64,000 bases of DNA from an uncultured Clostridia bacterium (lineage in GTDB: Bacteria; Bacillota; Clostridia; TANB77; CAG-508): contig CALXBY010000003.1 of NCBI GenBank assembly GCA_944386675.1, positions 17,689 to 81,688 of the forward strand. Reading direction: 5' to 3'. Position 1 is the stretch's first letter. Each line of letters begins with the position of its first letter. This document shows, in pieces, positions 581 to 57,186 of the stretch. Below the pieces are notes generated by a model. The model searched no databases. It was not told the DNA's origin and was given only the letters and a program-made list of their open reading frames with translations. A program made the translations under genes and the position numbers.

Positions 581-703
581 TAGGGACGTGCCAAATCGTT
601 TCAAAATGAAACCAAAAGGGACAGACCCCATTACTTATTAATCTCTTAAACATTTAGGTCTGTCCCTTTTGGTTTCATTTTGAAACGATTTGGCACGTCC
701 CTA
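581..703. mobile_element. MITE-like element, family 1, minimal copy: two perfect 45-bp inverted arms (GGGACGTGCCAAATCGTTTCAAAATGAAACCAAAAGGGACAGACC) around a 29-bp spacer, flanked by TA
   Basis: Arms 583-627 and 657-701 are exact reverse complements; TA at 581-582 and 702-703; lies exactly between prmC stop (704) and whiA RBS. Confidence 0.8.
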
Positions 704-3894: not shown

Positions 3895-4743
3895 TTATTT
3901 ATTTTGATTTATTGTTGCTTTTATAACATTATTCATAAGCATTGCTACTGTCATTGGTCCCACTCCCCCTGGAACTGGCGTAATATAGCTTGCTTTTTCC
4001 TTTACATTTTCAAAATCTACATCTCCTGTTATTTTTTTATCTGTGCCTCTATTAATTCCAACATCTATAACAACTGCTCCTTCTTTTACCATATCAGCTG
4101 TTACAAAATTTGGTTTCCCAATAGCAGCTACTAATATATCTGCATTTCTTGTTTTTTCCTTTAAATCTTTCGTTCTTGAATGACAGATTGTTACAGTTGC
4201 ATGCTTATTTAAGCAGCATGCCATAAGTGGTTTTCCTACAATGTTACTTCTTCCTATAATTACTAAGTTTTTTCCTTCTAAATCTATATTATACTCTTCA
4301 AACATTTTCATAATGCCATATGGTGTACAAGATATAAATGTATCTTGATTTAATAATAACTTTCCTACATTTACTGGATTAAATCCGTCAACATCTTTTT
4401 CATATGAAATTTCTCTAAAAGCTTCATCTATATCTAAATGTTTTGGAATAGGACTTTGTAATAAAATTCCATTTACAGTTTTATCTTCATTTAAGGTATG
4501 TATTAATTCAATTAATTCTTTTTGCGTAATATTTTCATTTAATATATGTTCTTCATATTTTACACCAATTTCATCACATGCTTTACTTTTATTTCTAACA
4601 TATACCTTTGATGCTGGATCATCTCCTACCATGATGACAGCAAATTTAGGTATGATTCCTTTTGCCTTTAAATTTTCACATTCTATTTTTAAATTTTCTC
4701 TTACGTTTTTTGCTAATGTTTTTCCATCTATTATTACAGCCAT
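3895..4743 (-). CDS. folD: bifunctional methylenetetrahydrofolate dehydrogenase/cyclohydrolase FolD
   Basis: MAVIIDGK...VGDDPASKVYVRNK...IIGRSNIVGKP...TPVPGGVGPMT; start taken at internal Met 8 of the track ORF. Confidence 0.9.
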   Translation of the reverse strand: MAVIIDGKTLAKNVRENLKIECENLKAKGIIPKFAVIMVGDDPASKVYVRNKSKACDEIGVKYEEHILNENITQKELIELIHTLNEDKTVNGILLQSPIPKHLDIDEAFREISYEKDVDGFNPVNVGKLLLNQDTFISCTPYGIMKMFEEYNIDLEGKNLVIIGRSNIVGKPLMACCLNKHATVTICHSRTKDLKEKTRNADILVAAIGKPNFVTADMVKEGAVVIDVGINRGTDKKITGDVDFENVKEKASYITPVPGGVGPMTVAMLMNNVIKATINQNK

Positions 4744-5069
4744 TTTTTCTATTTTACAGAGCATATATTTACACTCTATATCTCCTTTCTTTTTTTCTTA
4801 ACTGATTATATACTAACACATTTCTTTTTGCAAGAACAAATCTTGTATCTTCAAAAATTCTTTTCTAAATTTTAAATCACATACTTTATTTTAATTTTTG
4901 AAAGTGGTATAAGAACTTATCCATATAAAAAGCTATCCTGTTTTTATTTATTTTAACAGAATAGCCTTTGAAAAAAAGGGGATGTTTATGATTATTAATA
5001 TACTATCTGTATATGGATTATTCTTGCATGAAATGTGAATTATATGTGAATTCCCCTTTGTTTTATTTT

Positions 5070-5786
5070 TTATTCATCTATAACATTTTCATTACTATCT
5101 TTTATTATATAACCAGTTAAATCTGGTAATGTAACCTCCTCTTTGGTAAGTGCATTAAATTGATAATGATATGTTGAAATATTGCTATACATATTTTTAT
5201 CTTCATCTGATGAAACACCATTCATTGTTCCTATCATTCGATAATTTTCTTTATCTACCCATATAGAATGTTCTTCAGAATCCAAAAAGTTGAATGAAAT
5301 TTTATAGGCTTTTTCATCATTCCATCTAGTACTGCTAATACTTGTTAGCATAGATAATTGTATCAATGGCCATATATCATTACTTGATGGCAGTCCTGTA
5401 GCAACTCCAGCATTTGGAATCAATATAGCATCTTCATTATATTCTATTTTCGTTGCTATTTTTTCTCCATTAATATCTGTGATAATCCATGTTTCTTGTT
5501 CCTTATCATCTATGTAGATGCTTCTTTTCGCTAATTGTTCTTTTTCTAAAGAAGTATATGTCAACATTTTTCTTTCTCCACATATCCATAGTTCTGTAAT
5601 TCCATCGACTATATTATATGTTTTAGAATAATAATTTGTACTTTTTCTATCTTCTTCTTCTTGAATTGCAATTTGTCTTAGGATTAAAAATTTTCGAAAC
5701 GTGATTAATAAAAATATAAATAATAAAATTAATACAATAATTAAAATTTTCACACTTAATTTCATCTTTTTCTTTTCCATATTCAT
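5070..5786 (-). CDS. hypothetical membrane-anchored protein (N-terminal TM helix, no recognised domain)
   Basis: 238 aa ORF; KLSVKILIIVLILLFIFLLITF hydrophobic anchor; long-loop hairpin plus T-run 4985-5063 downstream. Confidence 0.5.
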   Translation of the reverse strand: MNMEKKKMKLSVKILIIVLILLFIFLLITFRKFLILRQIAIQEEEDRKSTNYYSKTYNIVDGITELWICGERKMLTYTSLEKEQLAKRSIYIDDKEQETWIITDINGEKIATKIEYNEDAILIPNAGVATGLPSSNDIWPLIQLSMLTSISSTRWNDEKAYKISFNFLDSEEHSIWVDKENYRMIGTMNGVSSDEDKNMYSNISTYHYQFNALTKEEVTLPDLTGYIIKDSNENVIDE

Positions 5787-5823
5787 TCCCCTTTTATCAT
5801 TATTCTCTTATTAAAATATTTTT

Positions 5824-6441
5824 CTAAATTTCTATTTTATATTCTTTTAATAATGTTAAAACATCTTGACTATCATTCGGCTTTACTTTTCTTCCTAGTA
5901 TTCCTAGTCTATTTGCCGTTTCAAAGCTTTTTCCTGTGTCATCATCATCAATAAATAAACATTCTTCCGCTTTTAAATGATATTTATTTAGTAATGTCTT
6001 AAATATTTTTTCATCTGGCTTTACTAGATGTTCATAAGCCGATATGATAATTCCATTACATAATTTAAAGAAATCAATTTCTTGAAAATATTCATATGTA
6101 AATGCTGCCATATTAGATAAAACATATATATGATATCCCTTTTCTTTTAATTTCTTTGCGATTTCTATAGTATCTTCATTTACTATTAAATATTTACATC
6201 TTTTATCCATAACATCTTTAATAAGTTTACTATATTCCTTTGGTGCTTTTTCTTGCATTCTAATTATTGCTTCTTCTTTACTTATATTTCCTAAATCTAA
6301 TAATTTCCACTCTTCTGTTTTAAATATATATTCTTTCAATTCTTTTGATATTTTTTCATTCTTTGTAAAATGCATTAATGTTTCAATACTTGAACCTTTT
6401 ATAATCACATTTCCTAAATCAAATATTATATTTTTTATCAT
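5824..6441 (-). CDS. HAD-superfamily hydrolase
   Basis: IIFDLGNVI motif I, VLSN motif II, FIDDDD motif IV. Confidence 0.7.
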   Translation of the reverse strand: MIKNIIFDLGNVIIKGSSIETLMHFTKNEKISKELKEYIFKTEEWKLLDLGNISKEEAIIRMQEKAPKEYSKLIKDVMDKRCKYLIVNEDTIEIAKKLKEKGYHIYVLSNMAAFTYEYFQEIDFFKLCNGIIISAYEHLVKPDEKIFKTLLNKYHLKAEECLFIDDDDTGKSFETANRLGILGRKVKPNDSQDVLTLLKEYKIEI

Positions 6442-6465
6442 TTTTTCATCCCTTCTTATTCTTTT

Positions 6466-6720
6466 TTATTGCTCTTCATCAGATATTCCTATACGATACT
6501 CAATATTTTCCATATGTGGAAACATTTCCTTCACCCTTTTTAAAGTAAGCATTGTCATCTTAGGTTGTGGATTTTTAGGATTTGTTGATAATAATTTTTG
6601 CGTATAGCAATTAGATGCTGTTTTAAATAATAAATATCGATTTCTTACATAGGTATAGTAAATTTGATACCCATCATCTAAATCTTCCCACATCATTTCA
6701 AATGTATAATTTTTGTCCAT
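6466..6720 (-). CDS. small hypothetical protein (84 aa)
   Basis: ORF with AAAGGAGG RBS at 6724-6731; no recognisable motif. Confidence 0.4.
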   Translation of the reverse strand: MDKNYTFEMMWEDLDDGYQIYYTYVRNRYLLFKTASNCYTQKLLSTNPKNPQPKMTMLTLKRVKEMFPHMENIEYRIGISDEEQ

Positions 6721-6735
6721 TTTTCCTCCTTTTGT

Positions 6736-6953
6736 CCAATTGAGAGATTTTGAGGGATTTTGGGGACGGACTCATTTTTCCCTTTTTTAGTTTAAAAAAT
6801 CGATTATATATAAGTTCTGTATATGTAAATTTAACTTAAAAAAACAAGTTCGTTATACATAAAACCATCTAATGATATTATGTTTCTATACTTATTAATA
6901 CAAAAAGGGAAAAATGAGTCCGTCCCCAAAATCCCTCAAAATGCCTCAATTGG
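6736..6953. mobile_element. MITE-like element, family 3: ~47-bp near-perfect terminal inverted repeats (CCAATTGAG[a/g]GATTTTGAGGGATTTTGGGGACGGACTCATTTTTCCC) around a 123-bp AT-rich core
   Basis: 6736-6782 versus reverse complement of 6907-6953 differ only at 6745-6748 (GAGAGATT vs GAGGCATT); sits between ligA stop (6958) and the RBS of the 84-aa ORF. Confidence 0.75.
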
Positions 6954-9156: not shown

Positions 9157-11214
9157 TTACGGACAAAACACTGCACGGAACGATTCGTTGCCAACACTGT
9201 TACCAAGACTACCTGTAGAGCAAAACACGCCTGCACCGTTATTGCTAGTATAATCTCCTCCGCGTCCGAAAAATGGACCACTCGTATATGCAAAATAAGA
9301 ATTGTCACTAAACCATGCTACTGCACTACTATTGTTAGTACGTACTTCTTTTATGGCATCTCCTATTTTACAGATAGCATATGCATTATTCATTGACGAA
9401 TTTGAACTATTACTATATGTTGTTATATATTTAGTACTGATATAATTTCCTTCTCCGTCTTTTGCTTCTCGTGTCATTTTTAGTCCATAACTAAAATTAG
9501 CAAGATATGAACTTGATCCTAATTTATTAAAGTCTGCTGTTCTCTCATGTGTTCCTCCCGCCATATCATATATTCCATATATATTTCCGGTTGTACTTGC
9601 CTTTGCTCCTATTTCTGTATTATATGCATTTGCTGTTCCTGAAACGGAACTTACATCTCCGCCAACAGCTCCACCGCCATTTCCTGTTATAAAGCTTCTA
9701 CTATTATTCGTATCGATCTCATTTCCATTTCTTCCATATTGACTTTGTGTTAAATATGCCACTGCTCCCCATTCACTATTTTTTGCTAAATGGCTATCCA
9801 TAAAACTTGTATGGTTGTATTCTGTTCCTCCTGACGTGATTGTGTTTTGAGTTCCTGTATATCCATACGTTGCATTTCTTGCCTCTACATATTGATCTCC
9901 TATTGGCTCATTTCTTAAACTTGCTATATCAGGTACACTTTGTAAATTTGATGAATTTCCACTCATCTCATATTTTGCAAACCAAAATCCTGCTAAGTCT
10001 TCATCCCATTCTCCATTTACATATCCATTACTGCTTCCATCACAAAATGCTGGATGTACGATATATTTATTTCCATTGTAATCCACTGTTTCAATTCCTT
10101 CATCTAATTTATATTTTAATGTTCCATCATTTTTCCACATTCCCCATCCATCATAAAATCCTGTGGGTTCTGTCGAACTCGTAGCATCATAATATGTAAT
10201 CCTATATGCATATCTTGGTATCCATACAAAATAACTTCCATTTGCTGTTTTTGCATTTGCCCATTTACTTGTCGTATTGTCTATTGGTCCATTTTCATCT
10301 CTGTTCGATACAGGATTATAGTTATACCAATTTGATATATCTGCTGTTTCATCTTCTGTCCATGTTTGCGAATTTTCATCATAACTCCATGTCACTGGTG
10401 TCATTGTTTCATTATTTGCACTTAATACTGGTGCATTAGGTTCACTTGATACTTGGTTCTCTTCTGTTAGCCATATTACATCTATTGTTCCATAACTTGT
10501 TGAAAAGCTTATTCCTGCATTTGGCTCACTGTCTTCTGTTGGCGTTGTTACAACTGTTACTATACATTCTGCTGTATACTCTCCATAATTTACCGTTATT
10601 TTTGCTGTTTTTCCTGCCGCATTTCCTGCTTTTAACTCAATTATGTTTTCTCTTATTTCTTCTACTTTTACAACACTTTCATTTGAAGATATAGCAGTTA
10701 ATATATTTCCTTCTGAATCCTCTATATTTGTTGGTTCTCTTGATACAATAATTCCATTATCTGTCATTGTCATTAAATAGTATTTTCCTCTGACCACTGC
10801 ATAATATTGCATTCCATCTGCATTTCCTTCATAAGTTACCGTTATACTTATTGTTGCACCTTTTTCTACAGTTAAACTATTACTATCTAATTTTATACCG
10901 GTTATGTTATTTCCCACTGCTGTAGCAATTTCATATCCATCTGTTTGCAATTGATTTACGATGTCTTCCATCGTGATATCTGGTTGTGGATATGTATTTC
11001 CCATTAATTTAGAAGTATAAATTAAGTTTGCTGCTTCCTCTATTTCAGAAAGTTCTGTCTGAATAGCTGCATCATTTGCCTTTGTCAAAATTCCATTTTC
11101 TCCTGTTAATGTCGCAATTGTTACACCTGCAAGTATTAATAACACAATGATTGTGATGACTAACGCAATTAAGGTAATACCATTATTCTTTTTGTTTTTT
11201 AACTTTTCCCTCAT
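9157..11214 (-). CDS. large exported protein: prepilin-like N-terminal hydrophobic segment, Ig-like (Big_2-type) middle, C-terminal formylglycine-generating-enzyme (FGE/SUMF1)-like domain
   Basis: 685 aa; N-term KKNNGITLIALVITIIVLLILAGV (pilin-like but Ala at +5); C-term GIYDMAGGTHE...GPFFGRGGDY...SFRAVFCP resembles the FGE-sulfatase fold. Confidence 0.65.
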   Translation of the reverse strand: MREKLKNKKNNGITLIALVITIIVLLILAGVTIATLTGENGILTKANDAAIQTELSEIEEAANLIYTSKLMGNTYPQPDITMEDIVNQLQTDGYEIATAVGNNITGIKLDSNSLTVEKGATISITVTYEGNADGMQYYAVVRGKYYLMTMTDNGIIVSREPTNIEDSEGNILTAISSNESVVKVEEIRENIIELKAGNAAGKTAKITVNYGEYTAECIVTVVTTPTEDSEPNAGISFSTSYGTIDVIWLTEENQVSSEPNAPVLSANNETMTPVTWSYDENSQTWTEDETADISNWYNYNPVSNRDENGPIDNTTSKWANAKTANGSYFVWIPRYAYRITYYDATSSTEPTGFYDGWGMWKNDGTLKYKLDEGIETVDYNGNKYIVHPAFCDGSSNGYVNGEWDEDLAGFWFAKYEMSGNSSNLQSVPDIASLRNEPIGDQYVEARNATYGYTGTQNTITSGGTEYNHTSFMDSHLAKNSEWGAVAYLTQSQYGRNGNEIDTNNSRSFITGNGGGAVGGDVSSVSGTANAYNTEIGAKASTTGNIYGIYDMAGGTHERTADFNKLGSSSYLANFSYGLKMTREAKDGEGNYISTKYITTYSNSSNSSMNNAYAICKIGDAIKEVRTNNSSAVAWFSDNSYFAYTSGPFFGRGGDYTSNNGAGVFCSTGSLGNSVGNESFRAVFCP

Positions 11215-13939: not shown

Positions 13940-15418
13940 ATGGAAAATACAAGATTGTATCAAGACATCGCAAAAAGGACTGATGGGGATATTTATGTAG
14001 GTGTTGTTGGTCCTGTGAGAACTGGTAAATCTACTTTTATCAAAAGATTTATGGATTTACTAGTCATTCCAAATATTGATAATGAATACAAAAAAGAAAG
14101 AGCAAAAGATGAACTGCCACAAAGTGCTGGTGGCAGAACTATTATGACAACAGAGCCAAAGTTTGTTCCAAATGAGGCTATTGAAATTACTTTAAATGAT
14201 AATCTAAAATTTAAAACCAGGCTTGTTGATTGTGTTGGTTATTTAGTAGATAATGCAATTGGCTATTTAGAAGATGATATGCCTAGAATGGTTAAAACAC
14301 CTTGGTCTGAAGAAGAAATTCCTTTTGAAACTGCTGCTGAAATTGGAACAAAAAAAGTTATTGAGGAACATTCTACTATAGGTATCTTAGTTACTACTGA
14401 TGGAACAATTACTGACATTCCAAGAGAAGATTATATTAAAGCTGAAGAAAGAGTTGTAAATGAATTAAAAGCTTTAAACAAGCCTTTTATTATTTTACTA
14501 AATTCAAATGACCCTGATTCTGACTATACGAAAGAGCTTGCGGAAAACTTAAGCAAAAAATACAATACTTCTGTTATGCCTCTTAATTGTGAATATCTAA
14601 CCATTGAAGATATTAATACAATGTTTTCTAAAGTATTATATGAATTTCCTGTTGACCAAATTTGTATTAAATTTCCTAGATGGATTGATGGATTAGATAT
14701 ATCACATCCTCTAAAAACAGAATTATATAAAGAAATTAAAGATGCATTTTCTAATGTAAATGTTTTAAAAGAAATCTCAGGTTGTGTAGAAACTATCAAG
14801 CAAACAGAAATCATTTCAAAAACTTCTATAACAGACATTCAACTAGGAACTGGAAAAGTAAATGTTGAAATCACCTTAAAAGAAGAATTATTCTATCAAG
14901 TACTTTCAGAAATTACAGGTGTTACAGTTTCTAATGAAGGTGATTTATTTAGTATCATTTCTGAATTAGCTGATGTGAAAAAGAAATATGATAAAATTGC
15001 CTACGCCTTAGATGAAGTTAATAGAAAAGGTTATGGAATCGTTACACCTTCAATGGATGAATTAATTCTAGAGGAACCAGAAATGGTAAAACAAGGCTCT
15101 AAATTTGGAGTAAAACTAAAAGCAATGGCACCTTCTATTCATCTTATCAAAACAAATGTGGCAACAGAAGTATGCCCAATTGTTGGTTCTGAAAAACAAT
15201 CAGAAGAACTAGTAAATTATCTATTATCCGGATTTGAAAGTGACCCTCAAAAAATCTGGGAATCTAATATCTTTGGAAAGAGTCTACATGAATTGGTAAA
15301 TGAAGGTTTACAAACCAAACTTGCAAAAATGCCAGAAGAAGCTCAAATTAAACTACAAGAAACTTTAGAAAGAATTGTTAATGAAGGCAGTGGTGGACTA
15401 ATTTGCATTATCCTTTAG
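13940..15418 (+). CDS. spoIVA: stage IV sporulation protein A (spore-coat morphogenetic ATPase)
   Basis: 492 aa; GVVGPVRTGKSTF Walker A at N-terminus; length and composition typical of SpoIVA. Confidence 0.9.
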   Translation: MENTRLYQDIAKRTDGDIYVGVVGPVRTGKSTFIKRFMDLLVIPNIDNEYKKERAKDELPQSAGGRTIMTTEPKFVPNEAIEITLNDNLKFKTRLVDCVGYLVDNAIGYLEDDMPRMVKTPWSEEEIPFETAAEIGTKKVIEEHSTIGILVTTDGTITDIPREDYIKAEERVVNELKALNKPFIILLNSNDPDSDYTKELAENLSKKYNTSVMPLNCEYLTIEDINTMFSKVLYEFPVDQICIKFPRWIDGLDISHPLKTELYKEIKDAFSNVNVLKEISGCVETIKQTEIISKTSITDIQLGTGKVNVEITLKEELFYQVLSEITGVTVSNEGDLFSIISELADVKKKYDKIAYALDEVNRKGYGIVTPSMDELILEEPEMVKQGSKFGVKLKAMAPSIHLIKTNVATEVCPIVGSEKQSEELVNYLLSGFESDPQKIWESNIFGKSLHELVNEGLQTKLAKMPEEAQIKLQETLERIVNEGSGGLICIIL

Positions 15419-15423
15419 TCCGT

Positions 15424-15469
15424 TAGGGACGTGCCAAAATAGACATTTTTTGTCCCAAAGGGACACACC
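15424..15469. repeat. degenerate solo copy of family-1 arm (TA + GGGACGTGCCAAAAT...GTCCCAAAGGGACACACC), 5 bp after spoIVA stop
   Basis: first 17 nt and last 13 nt match the family-1 arm ends; internally deleted. Confidence 0.6.
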
Positions 15470-15543
15470 TTATCTCTATAAGTTAGAAAAAGTCAATTGT
15501 ACACATTATTTTTTCTAACTTATATGTAAGGCTACACTATAAA

Positions 15544-15584
15544 ACCAGGACTTAGAAAATAGTTTCTAAATCCTGGTTTTTTTA
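15544..15584. terminator. bidirectional rho-independent terminator between spoIVA and the convergent phosphatase gene
   Basis: ACCAGGACTTAGAAA...TTTCTAAATCCTGGT stem followed by T7. Confidence 0.7.
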
Positions 15585-15592
15585 TGTTTCTT

Positions 15593-16129
15593 TTATTTAG
15601 ATATTTCTAACATAAAATACTCTAAATTTTTCAACATGATATTCTCTGTTTTAATATTATACATTCTCTTTATTGTTCTCATAATACCATTACTTGTACA
15701 AACTAAAATTAGAGAATTATCTGGATAAGTTGCAAAAATCCTTTCAATTGTTTCTCTCACTCTTGCTTCTACTTCTTCATGTCTTTCACCATAAGGTGGT
15801 GTGTAAATTCCTTTCTGAAAATCTTTTCTTAAAGATTGATCTACGTTTTCTTTATTTTTTCCTTCCCAATCTCCAAGACTGATTTCTGTAAATCCATCCT
15901 CTTCAATGAATTCCTGATTTGGAAAGATAGCCTCTAAAGTCTGTTTCGTTCTTTTAAGAGGTGAACAATAAATTGCATCAAAATGATAATTTTTAAACGT
16001 TTTTCTCATTTTTTTAGCCTGATTTCTTCCCTCTTCTGTAATCCCTACATCTATTCTTCCACAAAACCTACCTTCTTCATTCATTTTCGTCTTTGCATGT
16101 CTTAGAAAAATAATTTGTTTCATATGCAC
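15593..16129 (-). CDS. histidine phosphatase (phosphoglycerate-mutase family) protein
   Basis: 178 aa; IIFLRHAKT RHG motif. Confidence 0.8.
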   Translation of the reverse strand: MHMKQIIFLRHAKTKMNEEGRFCGRIDVGITEEGRNQAKKMRKTFKNYHFDAIYCSPLKRTKQTLEAIFPNQEFIEEDGFTEISLGDWEGKNKENVDQSLRKDFQKGIYTPPYGERHEEVEARVRETIERIFATYPDNSLILVCTSNGIMRTIKRMYNIKTENIMLKNLEYFMLEISK

Positions 16130-16145
16130 TCTCCTAATATGTTAT

Positions 16146-16679
16146 TTAAAACTGAAAATTTTTTACCTCACAATTTTTGATACACAATTGTAAACATGCT
16201 CCATTTTGAGGCACTCCATTAAAATAGCAGTTAACAGCTATACTAACACCTCCATGAGTTACCAATAAAATATTCTTATCTTTATACTTCTTTTTTATTT
16301 CATCTAAAAATAAAAATATTCTATTAAAGAAAACACTGATATTTTCAGCTTTTTCATAAGTTACATTTTTCTCGTAATTCCAAAATGCCTGAAAATCAAA
16401 TTCATCTTTAGACATTCCTTCCATTTCTCCGAAATCTCTCTCAGAAATTCTTTCATCAAAGATAATGAAAACGTTTTTCTCTAAATTAATAATTTCAGCT
16501 GTCTGTCTTGCTCTTTTTAAGGGGGAACAGATAATCAAATCAATGTTTTCTTCTTTTAACTTTTCCATTGTTTCTTTTGCCTGTTCTATTCCCTTAGCAT
16601 TTAACTCAATATTTGCTTTTCCTTGTACTTTTCCATACAAGTTCCAGTCTGTTTCTCCATGTCTTGTTACATATAACAT
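16146..16679 (-). CDS. histidine phosphatase (phosphoglycerate-mutase family) protein, second tandem paralogue
   Basis: MLYVTRHGETDWN...LLVTHGG; start moved to internal Met so that it abuts the upstream gene stop (16681) without overlap. Confidence 0.8.
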   Translation of the reverse strand: MLYVTRHGETDWNLYGKVQGKANIELNAKGIEQAKETMEKLKEENIDLIICSPLKRARQTAEIINLEKNVFIIFDERISERDFGEMEGMSKDEFDFQAFWNYEKNVTYEKAENISVFFNRIFLFLDEIKKKYKDKNILLVTHGGVSIAVNCYFNGVPQNGACLQLCIKNCEVKNFQF

Positions 16680-16680
16680 A

Positions 16681-17766
16681 TCAACCTCTCCATACTTGAA
16701 ATCCATTCGCAGAAAATGAACAAATCTGTTTTAATTCTGCACAAATTTCTAATTCATTAATCTCTGCTATTTTTCTGACATACTTTCTTAAATTTTCATC
16801 AGTTTCAGGAAAGCTATGCCGACTAATCGCATCCTCTCCAATGGTAATACTTCCAGAACAAAATTTCTTTTCACCTATTTGTATAGCATTTTTATGATAA
16901 GTGAAATCACTTTTTTCTGGTAGTTCTAATCCAAAACCATGTGGTATATAGTTGTTCTTAGCATTTTCCATTTTCTTCACTATATACACATTTTTTCCCG
17001 AACTTGTGAGCAATGTTGCAAGTCCTTCAGTCTTCTGAACACCAATTAATACTTCATGCACTGTTGGCATACCATAATGAGCCACATTTAAAACCTCTTT
17101 TCCCATTTCAGTCTTCAAAACCCTTTGGCAAAAAGTATAATTTCTTTCAGCATTAAAGGTCTTAAGCATTTCTGCAATTTTATAAAACTTTTCTGCTTTT
17201 TTACCTTCAATATACCTTAGATACCGGCAATCATCAACTCTTCCTGTCTTGATATCTTGGTGATACCAGTTTCCTACTGTCGGATACAGTTGCTCCTTAT
17301 ACTCACATGCTGATGCATGAACGAGCATATAATACCCTTTCTTCATTCCTATGTGATTATCATCATTTTCCAGATGACACAAAGAAATAAAGTGGTTACC
17401 ATTGGTAAAATTCCAGTTATACTTTGATGTATCTGATAAAACCTTCTCACACTTTTTCTTGAATTCACTTACCTGCATATCGAAATTTATCCAATACAAA
17501 GCCGTACCACAAACATTTATTGTAGCATCTACAGGAATGAACGGAATGTCTGAATGTTCCCATTTATACACAGCTCCTGTAAAGAAACCACCTTTCATTC
17601 TTGTAACATTATGTGCAATCCCTAAATCAGACATTGCATAAATATCACATGTTTTCTGTGTTGATGAAAGTTTTGTCGCAACCTTTGAAATTAGCTTTTC
17701 TGTTGTTTCTAATTCCCGAAGCAAAATCTTTTGTGTTCTGTCATTTAATGTTAAATTATAAATCAT
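16681..17766 (-). CDS. divergent RtcB-family (3'-phosphate/5'-OH RNA ligase-like) protein
   Basis: 361 aa; by-eye motif alignment to RtcB: AMSDLGIAHN ~ MPDVHLGKG, PVDATINVCG ~ VGVDIGCG, NFTNGNHFISLC ~ GTLGTGNHFIEIC, MLVHASAC ~ MLHSGSRG, NVAHYG ~ NCHHNY, IPHGFG ~ SHGAGR. Confidence 0.55.
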   Translation of the reverse strand: MIYNLTLNDRTQKILLRELETTEKLISKVATKLSSTQKTCDIYAMSDLGIAHNVTRMKGGFFTGAVYKWEHSDIPFIPVDATINVCGTALYWINFDMQVSEFKKKCEKVLSDTSKYNWNFTNGNHFISLCHLENDDNHIGMKKGYYMLVHASACEYKEQLYPTVGNWYHQDIKTGRVDDCRYLRYIEGKKAEKFYKIAEMLKTFNAERNYTFCQRVLKTEMGKEVLNVAHYGMPTVHEVLIGVQKTEGLATLLTSSGKNVYIVKKMENAKNNYIPHGFGLELPEKSDFTYHKNAIQIGEKKFCSGSITIGEDAISRHSFPETDENLRKYVRKIAEINELEICAELKQICSFSANGFQVWRG

Positions 17767-18035
17767 ATTGTTTCCTCCTTTTTGTCACATTAAATGTTTT
17801 TTGTTACAATTCCTTTACTATAAAGAATCAAGTTTCGCATTTTAAGCATTTATTTTTTTGCTTAATATCTGCCCTGTTTTATTTTATGTTAATCTCAATC
17901 GTTAAACTTTTCAAAATACAGTTTTTCAAAATTGATAAAAAAAATATCAAATTTCATTTTCTTTATGGAGATATTCCCTTCTATCCTTGTACTTTTATGT
18001 AACATAATGGTATAATAAAGATAGATTTTGTTATT

Positions 18036-20339
18036 ATGGAGGAACTTATGGAACAAGATATCTTAAAAACAAATAGAGCAAAATTATTATCTGATTTTAT
18101 TAATGAAATGAAACTATCTATTAAAAAACATAATATAAAAGGAGAATTACCTAGTAAAACATATATCTATACAAGAATTGCAGATTATACACATTATGCA
18201 GAAGTAAGTATCCGAAAATTTTTAACTGGTAGTATTCCAAAAGACATTCCTAGTTTTCTTCAAGGAATTTTAGAATATGCAAAATTGATACAAGTAGATG
18301 ATTCTAAAATTGATGCATTTGCTAAAAATTATTTATCTGCTACGAATACAGTTGTTTTTCAGGATGCAACTATCCAAACAAAAAACAACCTAATTCCTCA
18401 AGACTTAAGCAAAATTATTCGATCTCAAAAACTAACTTCGTTTTTAGATGATTTTATCAATCATCCTATTAATATTGCTTATATTTATGGATATAAATTA
18501 GGTGGAAAATCAAAATCTGTTATGGCATATATGTATGATTTGAGCTTAAAAAATAAATTTGAAAATATGATTTGGATCAATCTAAAAAAGGAAAATCAGC
18601 TATCTACTATTTTAGATACCATTTTGCTTTTCAATTTAGAAAATAAAGCAGAAATCAAACCTGAAGAAAAACAAGATACTTGTCTTGAGTTTATAAAAAG
18701 CACGAAATCTATCCTTATATTAGATTTTGATGATGACATTATCCAAGATGAAACCTTTACATTTGTAAAAAACTTTTCTAAATTTTCAAAAATAGTAATG
18801 ATTACTTCTGTCCCTTATTATCAATATGAAAATCAGTTAGATACCTATTGTTCTAGTTTCTGTATTAATGACTTCATTTCTAAGGAAGAATTAAAAGCTA
18901 TGCTTCATACAACAGAAAATTTTAGAAAAATTATAGATATGCAACCTTCATTAGTTGATACATTATATTCCATTACTGGTGGCATTCCATTTGCCTCTAT
19001 CTATCTAATGAAAAAAATTGTAAGTGTCAATAAACTAGGCGTTTCTTTAGAAAATGCCATTTCTAAATATACAAAAACAAATGAAGATTATAAAATCATG
19101 TCAGAAAAAATCATTCATGATATATGGAAAGAATTAAGTCCAATCGCAAAAAAAATACTCATCATTTGTGCAAATTTTAAATATACCATCTCGATTGAAC
19201 TTGTTTCCTACATATTACATTTAGATATATTATCTAATGAGTGGCAAGAAGCAATTACAGAATGTTATACAAATGATTTATTGATACCTATTATCCAAAA
19301 TCATCCAAGACTTGATATGCACAATTTAATAAGAACACTTGTCTTAGTAAATGCATCTGAAGAAGATTTTAATAAAGAAACATTTTTAAAACAATTAGCA
19401 AAGTTTTATATAGATAAGTCTGCCTATGTGGGTGAATGTTATAATGATATTTCTAAATTAAAATTATTTGATGAGTTAGATGAATGGAACATTACAAAAC
19501 AAGTATTAAATATGTTAGAAGAAAATAAATTATATAAAGAATATATTACGATAATTAGAAATTTAAAATACTACATTTATGTTAGAGGTATGTGGGAAAA
19601 AGGAGAAGATTCTCCACATTTAAAAAGAGCAAAAATGGCAAATATGATTGAAGATAAAAATGAAGAATTAGAAGCTTTGTGTGATTATATTAATATTATG
19701 TCTAAATCACAAAATCAAGAAGAAGCAAAAAAATATTTAGATATTGCTTCAAAAATTATTGAAAAAGAAAAAGATTCTTTAGAAAAACGTATTGTTTGCT
19801 TATTTTATCATGTAAAAGCTCTGTACACTTGTAACTGTTTAAAAAATTACAAAGAAAGTTATGACATATGGATCAATATTAAAGAAAACTATTTTCCTTA
19901 TATTAATGAATATAGAAAATTGGTAACAGATTTATGGATTACCAGATGCTATTTAAAAATTGAAAATGATTTTAAAGCAAAATATGATATGCTAGTTAAT
20001 CGTCTAAAAGATGCAAAAACAGCAAACTTTACTCGTGGTCAAGCAGATTATCATCTTTTACTCATCTCGCTTCTATTAGAACATTTTTCTATCACGCAAG
20101 ATGTAAAATTCTTAAAAATGGCAAATACAAAATTACATACTTGTGAACAATTTTTAAAAGATAATGATTCTTATGATATTCGAAATGAAGCTTTATATTA
20201 TCGTCTAAGAGCTATTTATTATACATACAACAATGATTTTACACAAGCTCAAGAAGTTGCTCAAAAAGCAATTAAAGATTACCAAATAATGAATTGCAAA
20301 AAAGATATTGAGAGTTTACTTGAAATTTTAGATAAATGA
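18036..20339 (+). CDS. STAND-class NTPase: N-terminal XRE-like HTH, NB-ARC-type P-loop module, C-terminal TPR-like helical repeats
   Basis: 767 aa; Walker A GYKLGGKS, Walker B ILILDFDDD; N-term ...LPSKTYIYTRIADYTHYAEVSIRKFLTGS HTH-like; start may be Met5 at 18048 (GGAGG 6 nt upstream). Confidence 0.6.
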   Translation: MEELMEQDILKTNRAKLLSDFINEMKLSIKKHNIKGELPSKTYIYTRIADYTHYAEVSIRKFLTGSIPKDIPSFLQGILEYAKLIQVDDSKIDAFAKNYLSATNTVVFQDATIQTKNNLIPQDLSKIIRSQKLTSFLDDFINHPINIAYIYGYKLGGKSKSVMAYMYDLSLKNKFENMIWINLKKENQLSTILDTILLFNLENKAEIKPEEKQDTCLEFIKSTKSILILDFDDDIIQDETFTFVKNFSKFSKIVMITSVPYYQYENQLDTYCSSFCINDFISKEELKAMLHTTENFRKIIDMQPSLVDTLYSITGGIPFASIYLMKKIVSVNKLGVSLENAISKYTKTNEDYKIMSEKIIHDIWKELSPIAKKILIICANFKYTISIELVSYILHLDILSNEWQEAITECYTNDLLIPIIQNHPRLDMHNLIRTLVLVNASEEDFNKETFLKQLAKFYIDKSAYVGECYNDISKLKLFDELDEWNITKQVLNMLEENKLYKEYITIIRNLKYYIYVRGMWEKGEDSPHLKRAKMANMIEDKNEELEALCDYINIMSKSQNQEEAKKYLDIASKIIEKEKDSLEKRIVCLFYHVKALYTCNCLKNYKESYDIWINIKENYFPYINEYRKLVTDLWITRCYLKIENDFKAKYDMLVNRLKDAKTANFTRGQADYHLLLISLLLEHFSITQDVKFLKMANTKLHTCEQFLKDNDSYDIRNEALYYRLRAIYYTYNNDFTQAQEVAQKAIKDYQIMNCKKDIESLLEILDK

Positions 20340-20375
20340 TTTTTAAGTAAAAACAATGTAACATTTCTAGTATTC

Positions 20376-20407
20376 GCAAAAACCCGAAGGGTAATTCCCT
20401 TCGGGTT
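20376..20407. terminator. GC-rich hairpin terminator shared by the convergent STAND gene and the orphan gene
   Basis: AACCCGAAGGG TAATT CCCTTCGGGTT; T-run on the minus-strand reading. Confidence 0.7.
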
Positions 20408-20409
20408 GC

Positions 20410-21495
20410 TTAATTGTATGTTTCCACGGGTTCAGCTGGTTCCACTAAGATTTTTATCAGCTGAAGCCTATTTTCAATTGATTCTTCCAAATCTTCATTA
20501 TTAGATCTGGAAATTTGGAGAGCGTCTCCTTTATATTTGGCTAAAATCTTTATTTTATTATTATCATCAAATTTTGCCAAAAATAAATTACCTTTTCGAT
20601 CTCCGATTTCATAATAAGCAATATTACCAACGCTTCCCAAGCACGTAAGTCTGCTTCCAGGAATTGAATATATTATGGGTTTTCCATTTGATGTTGACAG
20701 GGGTAGTTCCAATATTTCTCCAGTGTCCTTGCCTTTTATTGTAGCTATATATACATTTGCTACTTCATCAATCGGCTCAACATTATCCCATTCGCCCAGC
20801 CACTCTATAATGCCACTTTCTTTTGTGACTTCGTAAATTTTCCATTTACCATTGTTCAGTGGTTTATTTACTTGAAATCGGTTGGGAATACTTGACGAAA
20901 TATCCTGCTTATAGCCCTCAAATCTTTTTTGAAATGGCTCAGAAATAACTATTTTCTCATCTCTAAGGTACACATATTTAAAGCCTTTCCCGTCAAGCAT
21001 TTCTATTCCAGCATTCATAACTGGGTGGCCCCACTTCTCAAAAGGTCGAATGCTTCCATCAATTTCAGATATTTTCCCTGAAGAAATCCATAACATTTTA
21101 CTATACATGTTTCTCCTATTCTCTTGGAATAGGAGACCTTCTGTTCCATAAGACTGAAACCAATGGAAACCTGCTAATTCTTGAATTTCAACAACTTCAG
21201 ATTTGTTTTTCCATTTTTTAAACACCTTGTCACCGGTAGAAATTAGCAGATATTCTTCATTTTGTCCAGTTTTTATTACTTCATAATGAAATTTGGGATC
21301 TTTACGAAATGGTGCCAACAACATTTCTTTCTCTTCATCAATTATGGTCTCCTCTAATTCATCAGATTCGTTTTGCCTCTGCACAATAGAAATACCATAT
21401 TCCTTAAGAAGCTCATCTTTGTTATACCAATACCCTCCTAAATTTTCCATCCGCAGATACTTACAAGATTTTCCTTTTACCTTTTTTAATAACAT
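20410..21495 (-). CDS. hypothetical protein, no recognised domain, compositionally GC-shifted relative to neighbours
   Basis: 361 aa from ATG at 21495 (AGAGGA RBS); the track ORF starts at an upstream TTG; local GC visibly higher (CCACGGGTTCAGCTGG, GGGTGGCCCCACTTC). Confidence 0.5.
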   Translation of the reverse strand: MLLKKVKGKSCKYLRMENLGGYWYNKDELLKEYGISIVQRQNESDELEETIIDEEKEMLLAPFRKDPKFHYEVIKTGQNEEYLLISTGDKVFKKWKNKSEVVEIQELAGFHWFQSYGTEGLLFQENRRNMYSKMLWISSGKISEIDGSIRPFEKWGHPVMNAGIEMLDGKGFKYVYLRDEKIVISEPFQKRFEGYKQDISSSIPNRFQVNKPLNNGKWKIYEVTKESGIIEWLGEWDNVEPIDEVANVYIATIKGKDTGEILELPLSTSNGKPIIYSIPGSRLTCLGSVGNIAYYEIGDRKGNLFLAKFDDNNKIKILAKYKGDALQISRSNNEDLEESIENRLQLIKILVEPAEPVETYN

Positions 21496-21596
21496 ACTTT
21501 TTCCTCTCTTTCTCGCCAAATAGGCTTAAAATTGGTTACAGTTCTTAACTTGCGCTAGTATATCATAAAAATAACTCTTTTTCAATCTTATGTAAC

Positions 21597-22616
21597 TTAA
21601 AGATTCTTTCTCCTTAATTGCCCACATGCAGCATCAATATCTGATCCTAGTTCTCTTCGAATGGTCGCAACAATTCCATGGTCATTTAAATAATCTCTAA
21701 ATTTCATGATGTTTTCATTTGAGCTTTTGGTATAAGTTCCATTTTCTATTTTGTTAATTGGAATTAAATTTACATGACAAAGCATTCCTTTTAGTAGTTT
21801 TACTAATCTTTTTGCATCTTCTAAATTATCATTATTTTCTTTTGCTAAGGCATATTCAAAAGAAATTCTTCTATGTGTTTTTTCTATGTAATCCTTGCAT
21901 GCTTGTAATAATTCTTCTATATTATATGTATTATTTACTGGCATCATTTTACTTCTTTGTTCATCTGTTGTTGCATGCAAAGAAATAGACAAAGTACATT
22001 GTATATTTTCTTCTGCCAATTGATATATTTTAGGTACTAAACCACTTGTAGATATACTAATATGTCTAGCACCTATATTTAATCCTTTAGGATGATTGAT
22101 AATTCGAATTGCTTTTACGACATTATCATAATTGTCTAATGGTTCTCCTATTCCCATAAATACAATATTAGAAATTCTAACACCTGAATCTCTTTCTACT
22201 GCCATAATTTGTTCTATAATTTCTCCTGTACTTAAATTTCTGGCAAATGGAATTCCTGTTGAGGCACAAAATTTACATCCCATTTTGCATCCAATTTGTG
22301 AAGAAACACAAATACTATATCCATGATGATATTGCATCAATACAGTTTCAATTGCATTTCCATCTAATACATCAAATAAATATTTTTTTGTTCCGTCTGA
22401 TGCAACTTGTTTTTTTAATATTTTAAATTCTTTAATTTCATAGACTTGTTTTAATTTTTCTCTTAATTCTAATGATAGATTTGTCATATCATCAAAATCA
22501 GATACTCTTGCTTCATAAATCCATTTATAAATTTGTTCTGCTCTAAATGGTTTTTCTCCGATTTCTTTTAGTTCTTCTTTTAATTCATCTAATGCATAGT
22601 CTTTGATATTTTTCAT
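21597..22616 (-). CDS. rlmN: 23S rRNA/tRNA adenine C2-methyltransferase RlmN (radical SAM)
   Basis: 339 aa; CKMGCKFCAS radical-SAM CxxxCxxC, C-terminal ...DIDAACGQL. Confidence 0.9.
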   Translation of the reverse strand: MKNIKDYALDELKEELKEIGEKPFRAEQIYKWIYEARVSDFDDMTNLSLELREKLKQVYEIKEFKILKKQVASDGTKKYLFDVLDGNAIETVLMQYHHGYSICVSSQIGCKMGCKFCASTGIPFARNLSTGEIIEQIMAVERDSGVRISNIVFMGIGEPLDNYDNVVKAIRIINHPKGLNIGARHISISTSGLVPKIYQLAEENIQCTLSISLHATTDEQRSKMMPVNNTYNIEELLQACKDYIEKTHRRISFEYALAKENNDNLEDAKRLVKLLKGMLCHVNLIPINKIENGTYTKSSNENIMKFRDYLNDHGIVATIRRELGSDIDAACGQLRRKNL

Positions 22617-22692: not shown

Positions 22693-23667
22693 CTAATTCA
22701 AATACTGTATATTTTGATTTTTTGGTAATTCATATATTTCCAAATTCTCTTCGTTCTTATTTTTTTCATTTAATGAAACTGCATTTATTTGATTATTGTA
22801 ATAGGTTTTAAAATAATATATGCCTTTACTTGCATTCATACAAGAAGAATATGTTGTCATATCATAATTATTTTCTTTAGTTATAACACTTCCCTTTATC
22901 ATTGAAACAGAATCTAATATATGAAAAAATTGAGAGATAGAACTTTCTTCATCCTCATCTGTAATTGAGTTAAGCTTATAAAATGCTGTTCTTACAAATC
23001 TAGAAGTTGGTGTTACATCTCCTGGTAATCCCATCATTCCCATTCCTTGTCCATATGGCTTCAAATCAATTTCTTCTGAAAATGTATTAGTTGGAAATTT
23101 AGCTGATACATTCATATAATTGTTCATATTCATGTCATGATAATAAAAAGGAGGATTGTTTGTTAAAACTCCATAGGGATTATCATAAATTTGTAATCCA
23201 TATTTCGTTTGTTCTAATACAATACATTCTTTTTCATCACTTATCATCCAATGTAACTCAGCATTTGGCATATTCTCTGAGAACGCTTGATTTGTTATAT
23301 TTATCTTTTCTAAATCTTTCCTTAATTCTGCTATATTTGAATAGTTTCCCAAACACCATGGAATAAGTTCAAATGATGCTATATTTAAGTAACTTTCTTT
23401 TTCTTTATAATACACTGCATTTCCAGGGAAATATAATCCAGCAATACATAATCCTTTTTCATTAACTGCATCTGCATATAATGGATAACTGTCTATTACT
23501 GTTGCCATTCCTATCATAGCATACTTAGTTTGAAAACTGTTTTTGTTTTTTAGTTCAAATTTATACTTTCTAGGTGTAATTATTACTTTTTCTCCAAAGT
23601 TATATTCTAAATCCAAATTTCTTCCAAAGTAGAAATCTTTTGTTTTAAAATTAATACATGTACACAT
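22693..23667 (-). CDS. choloylglycine hydrolase family protein (bile salt hydrolase / linear amide C-N hydrolase, Ntn-hydrolase)
   Basis: 324 aa; N-terminal MCTCINF with Cys2 nucleophile typical of the BSH/PVA family. Confidence 0.75.
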   Translation of the reverse strand: MCTCINFKTKDFYFGRNLDLEYNFGEKVIITPRKYKFELKNKNSFQTKYAMIGMATVIDSYPLYADAVNEKGLCIAGLYFPGNAVYYKEKESYLNIASFELIPWCLGNYSNIAELRKDLEKINITNQAFSENMPNAELHWMISDEKECIVLEQTKYGLQIYDNPYGVLTNNPPFYYHDMNMNNYMNVSAKFPTNTFSEEIDLKPYGQGMGMMGLPGDVTPTSRFVRTAFYKLNSITDEDEESSISQFFHILDSVSMIKGSVITKENNYDMTTYSSCMNASKGIYYFKTYYNNQINAVSLNEKNKNEENLEIYELPKNQNIQYLN

Positions 23668-38314: not shown

Positions 38315-38428
38315 TATAGCCTCCTTTAAAATTCTTCTTGTATTATATTTCTTTTTCCAATATTTTCCAAGAGTAAAAAATAAGAAGTTTTGTCGTTTTA
38401 TAAGAAGTTTTCGACAAATGAAACAATT

Positions 38429-38491
38429 GGGACGTGTCAAATCATTTCAAAACGAAACAAAAAGGACAGGCATCCTGCCTGTCCCTTTTGG
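38429..38491. repeat. family-1 element remnant: one diverged arm (GGGACGTGTCAAATCATTTCAAAACGAAACAAAAAGGACAGG) plus the first 16 nt of the opposite arm
   Basis: alignment to the 45-bp family-1 arm; lies between GH13 stop (38520) and spoIIAA start. Confidence 0.7.
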
Positions 38492-40634: not shown

Positions 40635-40681
40635 GGTCTGTCCCTTTTGGTATCATTTTGAAACGATTTGGCACGTCCCTA
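40635..40681. repeat. family-1 solo right arm (45 bp, 43/45 identical to consensus) + TA, ending 4 bp before the ytfJ stop codon
   Basis: GGTCTGTCCCTTTTGGTATCATTTTGAAACGATTTGGCACGTCCC TA. Confidence 0.8.
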
Positions 40682-56885: not shown

Positions 56886-57186
56886 GACCAAAAGGGACAG
56901 ACCTATTTATATAGAAGTATAACAAAATTAAAATATTATATTTCTTAATTTATTACATTCCTCGGCTAACATTGCATCATAAAGAAAAACTAAAAGTATC
57001 TAATAGGCACCGCTCAAAATCAAGTTTTGAGATTCTCCTATTAGATACTTTAATTTTTTCTAATATGATTTCATTTGCATTCGTCATTTTATAAATTAAG
57101 AAATATAATATTTTTAATAATTTTTCTTTCTTCTAAACAGGTCTGTCCCTTTTGGTCTCATTTTGAAACGATTTGGCACGTCCCTA
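56857..57186. mobile_element. MITE-like element, family 1, full copy (~330 bp): TA + 45-bp arm ... 236-bp core with internal hairpin ... 45-bp arm + TA
   Basis: arms 56859-56903 and 57140-57184 are reverse complements (one G/A difference from copy A); TA at 56857-58 and 57185-86; right end forms the TAG stop of the S4-domain gene. Confidence 0.85.

Follow-up and report, generated by a model that had tools for sequence, protein, structure and literature searches.

A STAND NTPase, its divergent RtcB-like/phosphatase operon and an independent orphan gene between spoIVA and rlmN in uncultured Clostridia

Gene content and variability of the spoIVA-rlmN region

Here, we analysed a stretch of 64,000 nucleotides (hereafter the window) from contig CALXBY010000003.1 of an uncultured Clostridia bacterium (assembly GCA_944386675.1, positions 17,689 to 81,688) and focused on a gene for a predicted STAND NTPase and on the genes next to it. 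The window has a GC content of 27.7%, and the presence of spoIVA (13940-15418) indicates that the host is a spore-forming Clostridia bacterium. Around the NTPase gene, the order is spoIVA, phosphatase genes, a gene for an RtcB-like protein, the divergently oriented NTPase gene, a convergent orphan gene and rlmN. A first-pass annotation had described the NTPase and the orphan as a two-gene block inserted between conserved operons and as a plausible, horizontally acquired defence islet. Both open reading frames (ORFs) exist and converge as annotated, and rlmN does lie downstream. The features of the region are as follows:

15534-15587, no strand: inverted repeat with 25-nt arms, followed by a T-run on the plus strand; terminator-like, between the convergent spoIVA and last phosphatase gene
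15593-16129, minus strand: histidine phosphatase B (His_Phos_1), third gene of the operon; Pfam E 9e-40
16146-16706, minus strand: histidine phosphatase A (His_Phos_1, RHG at aa 15); Pfam E 7e-45
16681-17766, minus strand: RtcB-like protein of 361 aa, first gene of the operon; AF2 fold and candidate active-site residues described below
17817-17845, minus strand: promoter-like site TTAAAA-17-TATAGT for the RtcB-like operon; consensus match only
17908-17954, no strand: operator-like array TTTTCAAAA, N6, TTTTTCAAAATTGATA, A8, TATCAAATTT; putative STAND binding site
17987-18016, plus strand: promoter-like site of the NTPase gene, TTGTAC, 18 nt, TGgTATAAT (extended -10), read from the sequence
18036-20339, plus strand: STAND NTPase, ORF of 767 aa; the likelier start at 18048 gives 763 aa
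20381-20407, no strand: GC-rich hairpin AACCCGAAGGG-TAATT-CCCTTCGGGTT, 11 pairs, about -21 kcal/mol
20410-21495, minus strand: orphan protein of 361 aa from ATG, with a good ribosome-binding site; not part of the STAND module
21557-21585, minus strand: promoter-like site of the orphan gene, TTGAAA-17-TGaTATACT (10 of 12), directly after the rlmN stop codon

The region was compared with loci of relatives, numbered L001 to L049. All of these come from metagenome-assembled genomes of uncultured Clostridia, Eubacteriales or Bacilli, with chicken, mouse and water-deer gut among the samples. In a census of 31 species-representative loci, the RtcB-like gene lies divergently upstream of the NTPase gene in 28; it is unlinked in L032 and missing in L040 and L043. 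The trio of NTPase, RtcB-like protein and phosphatase also recurs in unrelated chromosomal surroundings. The NTPase is thus not a gene inserted between operons: its conserved partner is the divergent RtcB-like/phosphatase operon, not the orphan.

The distribution of the orphan is different. Four types of arrangement illustrate this:

L001-L003 (NTPase 82% identical): spoIVA, phosphatase, RtcB-like gene, divergent NTPase, then rlmN directly; no orphan
L008-L010 (orphan 85% identical): rlmN, orphan, spoIVA; no NTPase, RtcB-like gene or phosphatase
L011-L012 and L042: NTPase and orphan both present
L024: orphan paralogue (32% identical) on the other side of the module

Where the downstream sequence of close relatives is long enough, the NTPase gene adjoins rlmN directly in 13 species, and the orphan was found in two species plus the window. 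Comparison by blastn showed that window positions 20330-21602, comprising the orphan and the hairpin, are replaced by 159 bp in L001, and that positions 15418-20363, comprising both phosphatase genes, the RtcB-like gene and the NTPase gene, are replaced by about 100 bp in L008. Since their presence varies independently and with separate, clean indel boundaries, NTPase and orphan are not a functional pair, contrary to the initial proposal: the NTPase occurs alone in L001-L003 and 12 further species, and the orphan occurs alone in L008-L010. A STAND gene beside a GC-shifted orphan is therefore not by default a defence islet, and presence and absence in relatives separated the two genes here.

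The orphan protein was annotated as lacking a recognisable motif, and we agree: it was unmatched in Pfam, NCBIfam, PADLOC, PHROGs and PDB (sequence and profile searches), apart from a spurious 13-bit match to Cas12a in PADLOC. Five relatives came from a word-indexed search. When 1.84 billion representative proteins were searched exhaustively with a HMMER profile, nine matched at E<=0.001, and three of these, besides the already known relative, are near full length. An alternative TTG start at 21519 would give a protein of 369 aa. The GC content of the gene (0.344 versus 0.277 in the window) is elevated as first noted, and among the 56 ORFs of the window the gene ranks first in GC content at third codon positions (GC3, 0.290; z=3.1). 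This shift was considered as a sign of recent arrival in the genome and rejected, since GC3 is elevated (0.22-0.29) in the orthologues of all five genomes examined. The ratio of nonsynonymous to synonymous substitution rates (dN/dS) is 0.29-0.30, well below 1, indicating a real coding gene; for rlmN and spoIVA it is 0.009-0.046, i.e., 6-30 times lower. The dS value relative to the L008 copy is 0.24, against 0.60-0.81 for the flanking genes, which may be due to a recent exchange among relatives or to constraint on codons. Of the suggested horizontal acquisition, what stands is that the gene is accessory, present in few of the close relatives sampled and has a low dS that fits exchange between them; a recent arrival is not indicated by a GC3 that is family-wide.

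The GC-rich hairpin at 20381-20407 is real as well. It had been described as a terminator shared by the two convergent genes. Its T-run is on the minus strand only, so it was assigned to the orphan as its terminator, and it is kept with the orphan in L008, which has no NTPase. The orphan is an independently gained or lost, fast-evolving, lineage-restricted accessory gene with its own promoter-like site and terminator. As a separate observation, the orphan paralogue of L024 (6425-7414, minus strand) lies between spoIVA and a phosphatase gene, at the 3' end of the RtcB-like operon.

No mobile-element signatures were found at the orphan indel junctions. In L001, the orphan-less spacer between NTPase and rlmN (9800-9970) is a 171-bp palindrome with perfectly complementary arms of 69 nt. 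It starts with the TTAGGGACGTGTCAAAA element that is also repeated in the window (see below) and belongs to a genome-wide repeat family, and insertion and deletion are not distinguishable here. A choloylglycine (bile-salt) hydrolase gene adjoining rlmN (22693-23667, minus strand) is absent in L001, L011, L021, L024 and L025. Because this gene is also variably present, the spoIVA-rlmN neighbourhood is a hotspot of multiple indels.

A repeated intergenic element, TAGGGACGTGCCAAAT, occurs seven times in the window (0.02 copies expected), mostly in inverted pairs, and resembles repetitive extragenic palindromes or miniature inverted-repeat transposable elements. One copy lies directly after the spoIVA stop codon, at the edge of the variable region. 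The copies are as follows:

581-596, plus strand: TAGGGACGTGCCAAAT
688-703, minus strand: TAGGGACGTGCCAAAT
15424-15439, plus strand: TAGGGACGTGCCAAAT, the copy after spoIVA
38427-38442, plus strand: TAGGGACGTGCCAAAT
40666-40681, minus strand: TAGGGACGTGCCAAAT
56857-56872, plus strand: TAGGGACGTGCCAAAT
57171-57186, minus strand: TAGGGACGTGCCAAAT

Elsewhere in the window, a gene of the alpha-amylase family (38520-40412, minus strand) has the second-highest GC3 (0.277) and is flanked by inverted TAGGGACGTG repeats at 38427 and 40666; gene and repeats together may be a mobilised cassette.

The STAND NTPase and the RtcB-like protein

At least 120 full-length homologues of the NTPase, with 35-97% identity, were found, and 26 of them were aligned as the NTPase family. 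ATG 18048 is the likelier start codon because GGAGG lies 6 nt upstream of it and most homologues have 763 aa. Distant relatives keep an equivalent TATAAT with a TTGMTA -35 element before the gene. The Walker A motif GYKLGGKS (aa 152-159, 18489-18512) and the Walker B motif ILILDFDDD (aa 226-234, 18711-18737) are present as annotated, and G152, G157, K158 and D230 are invariant in the 26 homologues, down to 35% identity. Structures were predicted with AlphaFold (AF2) for the NTPase and the RtcB-like protein and compared with PDB using Foldseek. The NTPase model (pLDDT 89) comprises four parts:

aa 1-102, 18036-18341, plus strand: N-terminal helical domain, followed by a linker
aa 131-276, 18426-18863, plus strand: alpha/beta nucleotide-binding domain
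aa 283-440, 18882-19355, plus strand: helical and winged-helix part
aa 447-766, 19374-20333, plus strand: helical repeats resembling tetratricopeptide repeats (TPRs), seen as helix pairs

The best PDB match of this model is 6mfv (PH0952, E 1e-12), followed by CED-4, Apaf-1 and plant NLRs, all with a Foldseek probability of 1.00; the defence protein EfAvs5 appears only at rank 38. In sequence searches, Pfam NB-ARC (PF00931) reached 19.9 bits, under its gathering cut-off of 23.5, and was matched by nine of the 26 family members at E<=0.01 (best E 2.4e-4). TPR_12 was matched by two of the 26, and NCBIfam had no match to the NTPase. The NB-ARC assignment of the first-pass annotation is thus borne out by fold and falls below the Pfam cut-off, and the TPR-like repeats are seen in the model over about 320 aa rather than the 450 aa given. 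We regard the 767-aa protein as a true STAND NTPase, a membership that rests on its motifs and predicted fold, with a sequence too divergent for Pfam NB-ARC.

Conservation within the protein is highest in the N-terminal domain. There, EVSIRKFLTG and PKD do not vary even in homologues with an overall identity of only 35%, and the invariant core YxRxAxYTxYxEVSIRKFLTG is encoded at 18162-18230. In the model, a pair of helices at H41-52 and H56-62 resembles a helix-turn-helix (HTH), with no match to HTH families. The XRE-type HTH that had been annotated here was rejected as unproven, as Pfam, a PDB profile search and hhalign all gave no support and the model shows a conserved helical N-terminal domain only.

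The RtcB-like gene overlaps the gene for phosphatase A by 26 nt, and the second His_Phos_1 gene follows next; on the basis of this overlap and succession, the three genes form an operon. Phosphatase B, with an RHA motif at aa 8 (numbered from ATG 16123), is the type kept in distant relatives (42-48% identity). Phosphatase A is an extra copy and itself an indel, absent in L001 and L024; it is about 30% identical to phosphatase B and has an elevated GC3 (0.241). The GC3 of the RtcB-like gene is 0.23-0.27 in eight of nine genomes, including relatives at 43-50% protein identity.

The RtcB-like protein and 21 homologues did not match the Pfam RtcB family at E<=1, and a search of PDB with the family profile (hmmsearch) gave nothing at E<=10. 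The AF2 model (pLDDT 93.3, pTM 0.91) had nine matches in PDB with E 9e-8 to 1e-5, all of them RtcB ligases, and the next match was at E 0.2. A Foldseek search of the viral library BFVD returned only two significant matches, both RtcB, the better being a phage RtcB of 370 aa (TM about 0.6). The upstream 361-aa protein has an RtcB fold in its predicted structure, a point settled by fold comparison only. The initial RtcB assignment of this gene was therefore right at the fold level, although Pfam misses it, and two His_Phos_1 genes do follow it.

Seven RtcB motifs are collinear between this family and E. coli RtcB. The invariant residues D47, D80, C86, N124, H125, H150, H230 and H276 are candidate active-site residues. 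Motifs of the two correspond as follows:

E. coli RtcB MPDVH: MPDLG in the RtcB-like family
E. coli RtcB VDIGCG: VDxTxNVCG in the RtcB-like family (D80, C86)
E. coli RtcB GNHF: GNHF in the RtcB-like family (N124, H125)
E. coli RtcB LHSG: VHAS in the RtcB-like family (H150)
E. coli RtcB CHHN: AHYG in the RtcB-like family (H230)
E. coli RtcB SHGAG: PHGFG in the RtcB-like family (H276)

Alignment with hhalign pairs GNHF, H150 and H276, at low probability, with N167/H168, H185 and H337 of E. coli RtcB, where H337 is the histidine of SHGAG and the nucleophile. The candidate residues would correspond to the metal ligands Asp95, Cys98, His203, His234 and His329, to Asn202 and to the nucleophile His404 of PhoRtcB; the ligands of E. 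coli RtcB are Asp75, Cys78, His168, His185 and His281 (PMC9745838). Judged from model and candidate residues, the RtcB-like protein would be a small, strongly diverged enzyme of the RtcB fold whose RtcB active site appears intact, and is a far outlier rather than a recognisable member of the family. Pfam and HMMER miss this RtcB-fold family, which is widespread in gut Clostridia, with 289 protein clusters at E<=0.001, and always coupled to a histidine phosphatase.

Some loci deviate with respect to the RtcB-like gene. In L040, the phosphatases and the operator-like motif described below are present and a full-length RtcB-like gene was not detected. In L030 (1715-2840, minus strand), the gene is split into two ORFs of 294 and 121 aa, either a frameshifted pseudogene or an assembly error. 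In L032, the unlinked RtcB-like gene is preceded (4063-6882, plus strand) by genes for an AAA_14/DUF4143 ATPase and a protein with Schlafen-AlbA_2, HATPase_c_4 and winged-HTH domains; AAA_14/DUF4143 and Schlafen-AlbA_2-type proteins are often found in conflict-system neighbourhoods.

An operator-like motif and the proposed regulation

Between the NTPase and RtcB-like genes lies a palindromic array, TCAAAATTGATA-A8-TATCAA, whose core TTGATA-N7-TATCAA (17932-17950) precedes the annotated NTPase start by 86 bp. The 64-kb window contains TTGATA-N6-9-TATCAA a single time, with 0.17 occurrences expected, and further operator copies above chance were not found there. When the intergenic regions of relatives with 44-90% protein identity were aligned, a single block survived, consisting of (T/A)ATCAAA(A)TTGATA, an A/T tract of 7-8 nt and TATCAATTT, with an extra copy of TATCAAAA or TTTCAAAA upstream of it. 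The TATAAT promoter of the NTPase gene has, in distant relatives, an AAATTGMT element at its -35 position.

The motif is present in 39 of 40 NTPase-carrying loci, with a one-mismatch variant in the fortieth (L029), and is absent in all four relatives without NTPase. In L032, where the NTPase and RtcB-like genes are unlinked, it is found about 110 bp upstream of the RtcB-like gene, and L046 and L047, which carry a 48%-identical NTPase in a different neighbourhood, have a perfect copy. L048 and L049 come from relatives at 43% identity in which the RtcB-like and phosphatase pair is kept, a LysR-type regulator upstream replaces the NTPase and the motif is gone; an inverted repeat, TAAAGTATAAC-N5-GTTATACTTTA, lies between the LysR-type and RtcB-like genes. 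The coordinates are as follows:

L048, 4652-7446: gene for a 407-aa RtcB-like protein and a His_Phos_1 gene, preceded by the LysR-type regulator
L049, 1007-3801: gene for a 407-aa RtcB-like protein and a His_Phos_1 gene, preceded by the LysR-type regulator

The genomic position of the NTPase can hence be filled by an ordinary transcription factor. A second operator copy precedes a gene for a Ser_hydrolase (PF06821) of about 190 aa in L027 (7122-7140) and L037 (7527-7545), a hint that the regulon, though small, may include more than the RtcB-like operon. In L004 (6608-7919) and L043 (6442-8027), a lineage with a 51%-identical NTPase, a HicA/HicB cassette lies between two operator copies and the RtcB-like operon is displaced. 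Paralogous genes of 115 and 119 aa of unknown function lie there alongside the cassette, and L043 retains a phosphatase remnant of 47 aa. From this distribution across loci, it follows that the motif tracks the NTPase and marks its putative target promoters; we propose that the NTPase binds it.

We consider it likely that the NTPase is a signal-sensing STAND transcription factor controlling the divergent RtcB-like/phosphatase operon, and that the orphan is a separate, unrelated accessory gene. This is the most likely reading because knowledge of MalT, GutR and AfsR can be combined with the fold of the NTPase, its conserved partner operon and the motif. In these regulators, a resting, ADP-bound nucleotide-binding oligomerisation domain (NOD) that the sensor keeps closed gives way, with inducer and ATP, to oligomerisation and the cooperative occupation of site arrays (PMC6468293; references in PMC13581612). 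The predicted domain order of the NTPase, an N-terminal DNA-binding domain, an NB-ARC-type NOD and a TPR-like sensor, would be that of PH0952 and GutR. By analogy with MalT, GutR and AfsR, its resting form would be bound to ADP, with the NOD kept closed by the TPR sensor. A ligand at the TPR region would permit ATP binding and oligomerisation, and the N-terminal domains of the oligomer would then fill the array of TCAA/TTGA half-sites at 17908-17954. This would lead to control, probably activation, of the divergent operon (17766-15593) and probably also of the NTPase gene's own promoter. The folds, the conservation, synteny, motif distribution and the orphan's independence are results of the analysis; we infer DNA binding by the N-terminal domain and the direction of regulation from these parallels. 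By analogy with RtcR-RtcBA, the operon would most likely be an inducible system that heals and seals nucleic-acid ends, with the inducer and the enzymatic activities presumed.

Several findings weigh against this interpretation. For the N-terminal domain, neither Pfam (residues 1-110) nor a PDB search with a nine-domain profile indicated an HTH family, and hhalign against a small XRE alignment gave a probability of 0.3%. For the RtcB-like family, the hhalign probability against E. coli RtcB was only 4%, and the spacing of Asp and Cys is D-x5-C versus D-x2-C in RtcB. The module is missing in some close relatives (L008-L010), and toxin-antitoxin and abortive-infection genes (HicAB, ParE, PemK, AbiEii) lie near it in several lineages, which would fit a conflict system. 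In the clade of the window, the motif is about 70 bp upstream of the predicted -35 element of the RtcB-like operon, a larger distance than in distant relatives. The promoters were called by consensus match only, and the motif could be bound by another protein.

Some of these points lead to an alternative, in our view unlikely, in which the NTPase, together with the RtcB-like protein and the phosphatases, makes up a module of the conflict or abortive-infection type, the STAND protein activates the enzymes by protein contact and the motif is incidental or autoregulatory. Among close relatives, the 4.9-kb block is kept or missing as a whole (it is missing in L008-L010), and it occurs in different chromosomal contexts, with the above toxin-antitoxin genes nearby in several lineages. 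RtcB systems have been linked to ribotoxin damage (PMC9223846, PMC7790460), and defence and non-defence STAND clades are interspersed (PMC13581612). However, the motif stays with the RtcB-like gene where the latter is unlinked (L032) and also precedes other genes, and a LysR transcription factor takes the place of the NTPase in some lineages. The small helical N-terminal domain is not a known effector or adaptor: in this stretch of about 100 aa, no enzyme family and no nuclease, SIR2, TIR or protease effector was matched. PADLOC contained no family matching the NTPase or the RtcB-like protein at E<=1, and PHROGs and NCBIfam likewise had nothing for these two proteins or the orphan. The dN/dS of the NTPase (0.13-0.15) is unremarkable, and the neighbours of the module in the window are housekeeping genes (spoIVA, rlmN). 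The motif evidence favours transcriptional control whether or not the role is conflict-related.

The motif might instead be the site of another regulator, global or linked to sporulation, with the STAND protein acting in another way, for example as a non-DNA-binding scaffold or chaperone-like switch, which we regard as quite improbable. It would agree with the lack of a recognisable HTH family in the NTPase and with several features pointing to sporulation. A conserved (T/A)TCGACA element lies 10-25 nt on the RtcB-like side of the operator in the distant relatives L027, L028, L029, L031 and L034; this element, in its TTCGACA form, resembles the reverse complement of the Spo0A box, TGTCGAA. In addition, a gene with a Spo0A_C domain only flanks the module in L006 (5541-6029), and the module adjoins spoIVA in two clades. 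Together, these features may indicate a link to sporulation. Nevertheless, the motif is unique in the 64-kb window, although a global regulator should have sites elsewhere as well; motif and NTPase occur together at essentially every locus, and the motif is lost when LysR replaces the NTPase; and the invariance of the N-terminal domain parallels that of the half-sites.

Two further explanations concern the orphan, and we assign very little probability to either. The first holds that NTPase and orphan are a two-gene, horizontally acquired islet of the Avs type, in which the STAND protein would recognise a phage protein, with the orphan as partner or effector. In favour of this, the two neighbouring genes converge on a hairpin, the orphan is rare, evolves fast and has a shifted composition, and STAND NTPases include many defence proteins (PMC13581612). 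This is contradicted by the independent variation of the two genes in L001-L003 and L008-L010 and by the 13 species that have the NTPase without the orphan. The NTPase lacks an enzymatic effector domain and has EfAvs5 at rank 38 among its structural matches. Beyond the spurious Cas12a match, PADLOC gave nothing for NTPase or orphan at E<=1, and tblastn against 72,556 plasmids and 50,697 phages yielded no hit. The proposed defence islet was thus not borne out. The second, that the orphan modulates the STAND protein as an anti-activator, as MalY or MalK do for MalT, and is not needed in most lineages, would suit a tiny family found only in the spoIVA-rlmN interval with the L024 paralogue at the 3' end of the RtcB-like operon, but the orphan is kept without the NTPase in L008-L010, is absent in most NTPase-bearing species and has its own promoter and terminator.

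Regulation of the operon by the NTPase, as favoured here, gives a clade of uncharacterised bacterial STAND proteins a testable regulatory model in which target operon, candidate operator and promoter layout are all specified, which few STAND transcription factors have. A bolder proposal, which we put forward tentatively and hold to be rather doubtful, is that gut Clostridia possess an undescribed inducible system for healing and sealing ends. In it, a STAND (NLR-like) factor would sense a signal of damage or attack via its TPR region and switch on a cryptic, minimal RtcB-type ligase together with end-preparing PGAM-type phosphatases through a TCAA-N-TTGA operator, possibly within a small regulon. 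If true, such a system would be the counterpart of RtcR-RtcBA in function, assembled from an unrelated regulator and unrelated end-processing parts.

Comparison with known systems

The best structural match of the NTPase, PH0952 of Pyrococcus horikoshii (6mfv), is predicted to be a transcription factor, with an N-terminal DNA-binding effector domain and a TPR sensor (PMC6468293). Both proteins have the order putative N-terminal DNA-binding effector, NOD, arm and TPR sensor. They share only 16% identity, and the N-terminal domain of PH0952 is described as ArsR-like, whereas that of the NTPase matches no HTH family. PH0952 is archaeal and has no known targets or DNA site, whereas the NTPase has a putative target operon and a candidate operator.

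GutR combines an HTH at its N-terminus with an NTPase of the NB-ARC type and TPRs, and the operon that it activates is transcribed divergently. Like GutR of Bacillus subtilis, MalT of E. coli and AfsR of Streptomyces, which are signal-dependent, ATP-binding, oligomerising regulators with a repeat sensor and site arrays near their promoters, the NTPase would act on a promoter-proximal array. According to Pfam, the NTPase lacks the LuxR-type C-terminal HTH of MalT and the SARP domain of AfsR, and its proposed targets encode an RtcB-like ligase and phosphatases rather than functions in sugar or antibiotic metabolism. In a STAND phylogeny of 2026, GutR, MalT and AfsR are non-immune members interspersed with defence clades (PMC13581612).

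With Avs proteins, the NTPase shares a STAND NOD and a C-terminal helical-repeat sensor, and EfAvs5 is among its structural matches. Unlike them, it has no PADLOC match and no N-terminal nuclease, SIR2, TIR or protease effector; its gene has housekeeping neighbours in the window rather than an evident defence island around it and is accompanied by a conserved putative operator and target operon.

The RtcB-like protein has the predicted fold of canonical RtcB ligases, including the compact phage forms, and its candidate two-metal site, the Asn-His of GNHF and the candidate nucleophilic His are collinear and invariant. It differs from them in the absence of HMMER-detectable similarity, in the spacing D-x5-C versus D-x2-C and in PDLG versus PDxH, and it is about 50-140 residues shorter than canonical cellular RtcB.

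In the RtcR-RtcBA system of E. coli and Salmonella, which is described as regulated by damaged tRNAs (PMC7790460), a dedicated, signal-sensing NTPase-type activator is likewise encoded divergently from an operon for an RtcB-fold ligase and an RNA-end-modifying enzyme. The parts are different: the regulator here is a STAND protein and RtcR a CARF-domain enhancer-binding protein of the sigma54 type; the partner here is a His_Phos_1 protein instead of the cyclase RtcA, and RtcR and RtcA are both absent at the locus; and the RtcB-like protein, with 361 aa versus 408-505 aa, is 11-14% identical to solved or predicted RtcB structures. If active, the RtcB-like family would widen the known range of RtcB-type chemistry and of the regulation of RNA repair operons.

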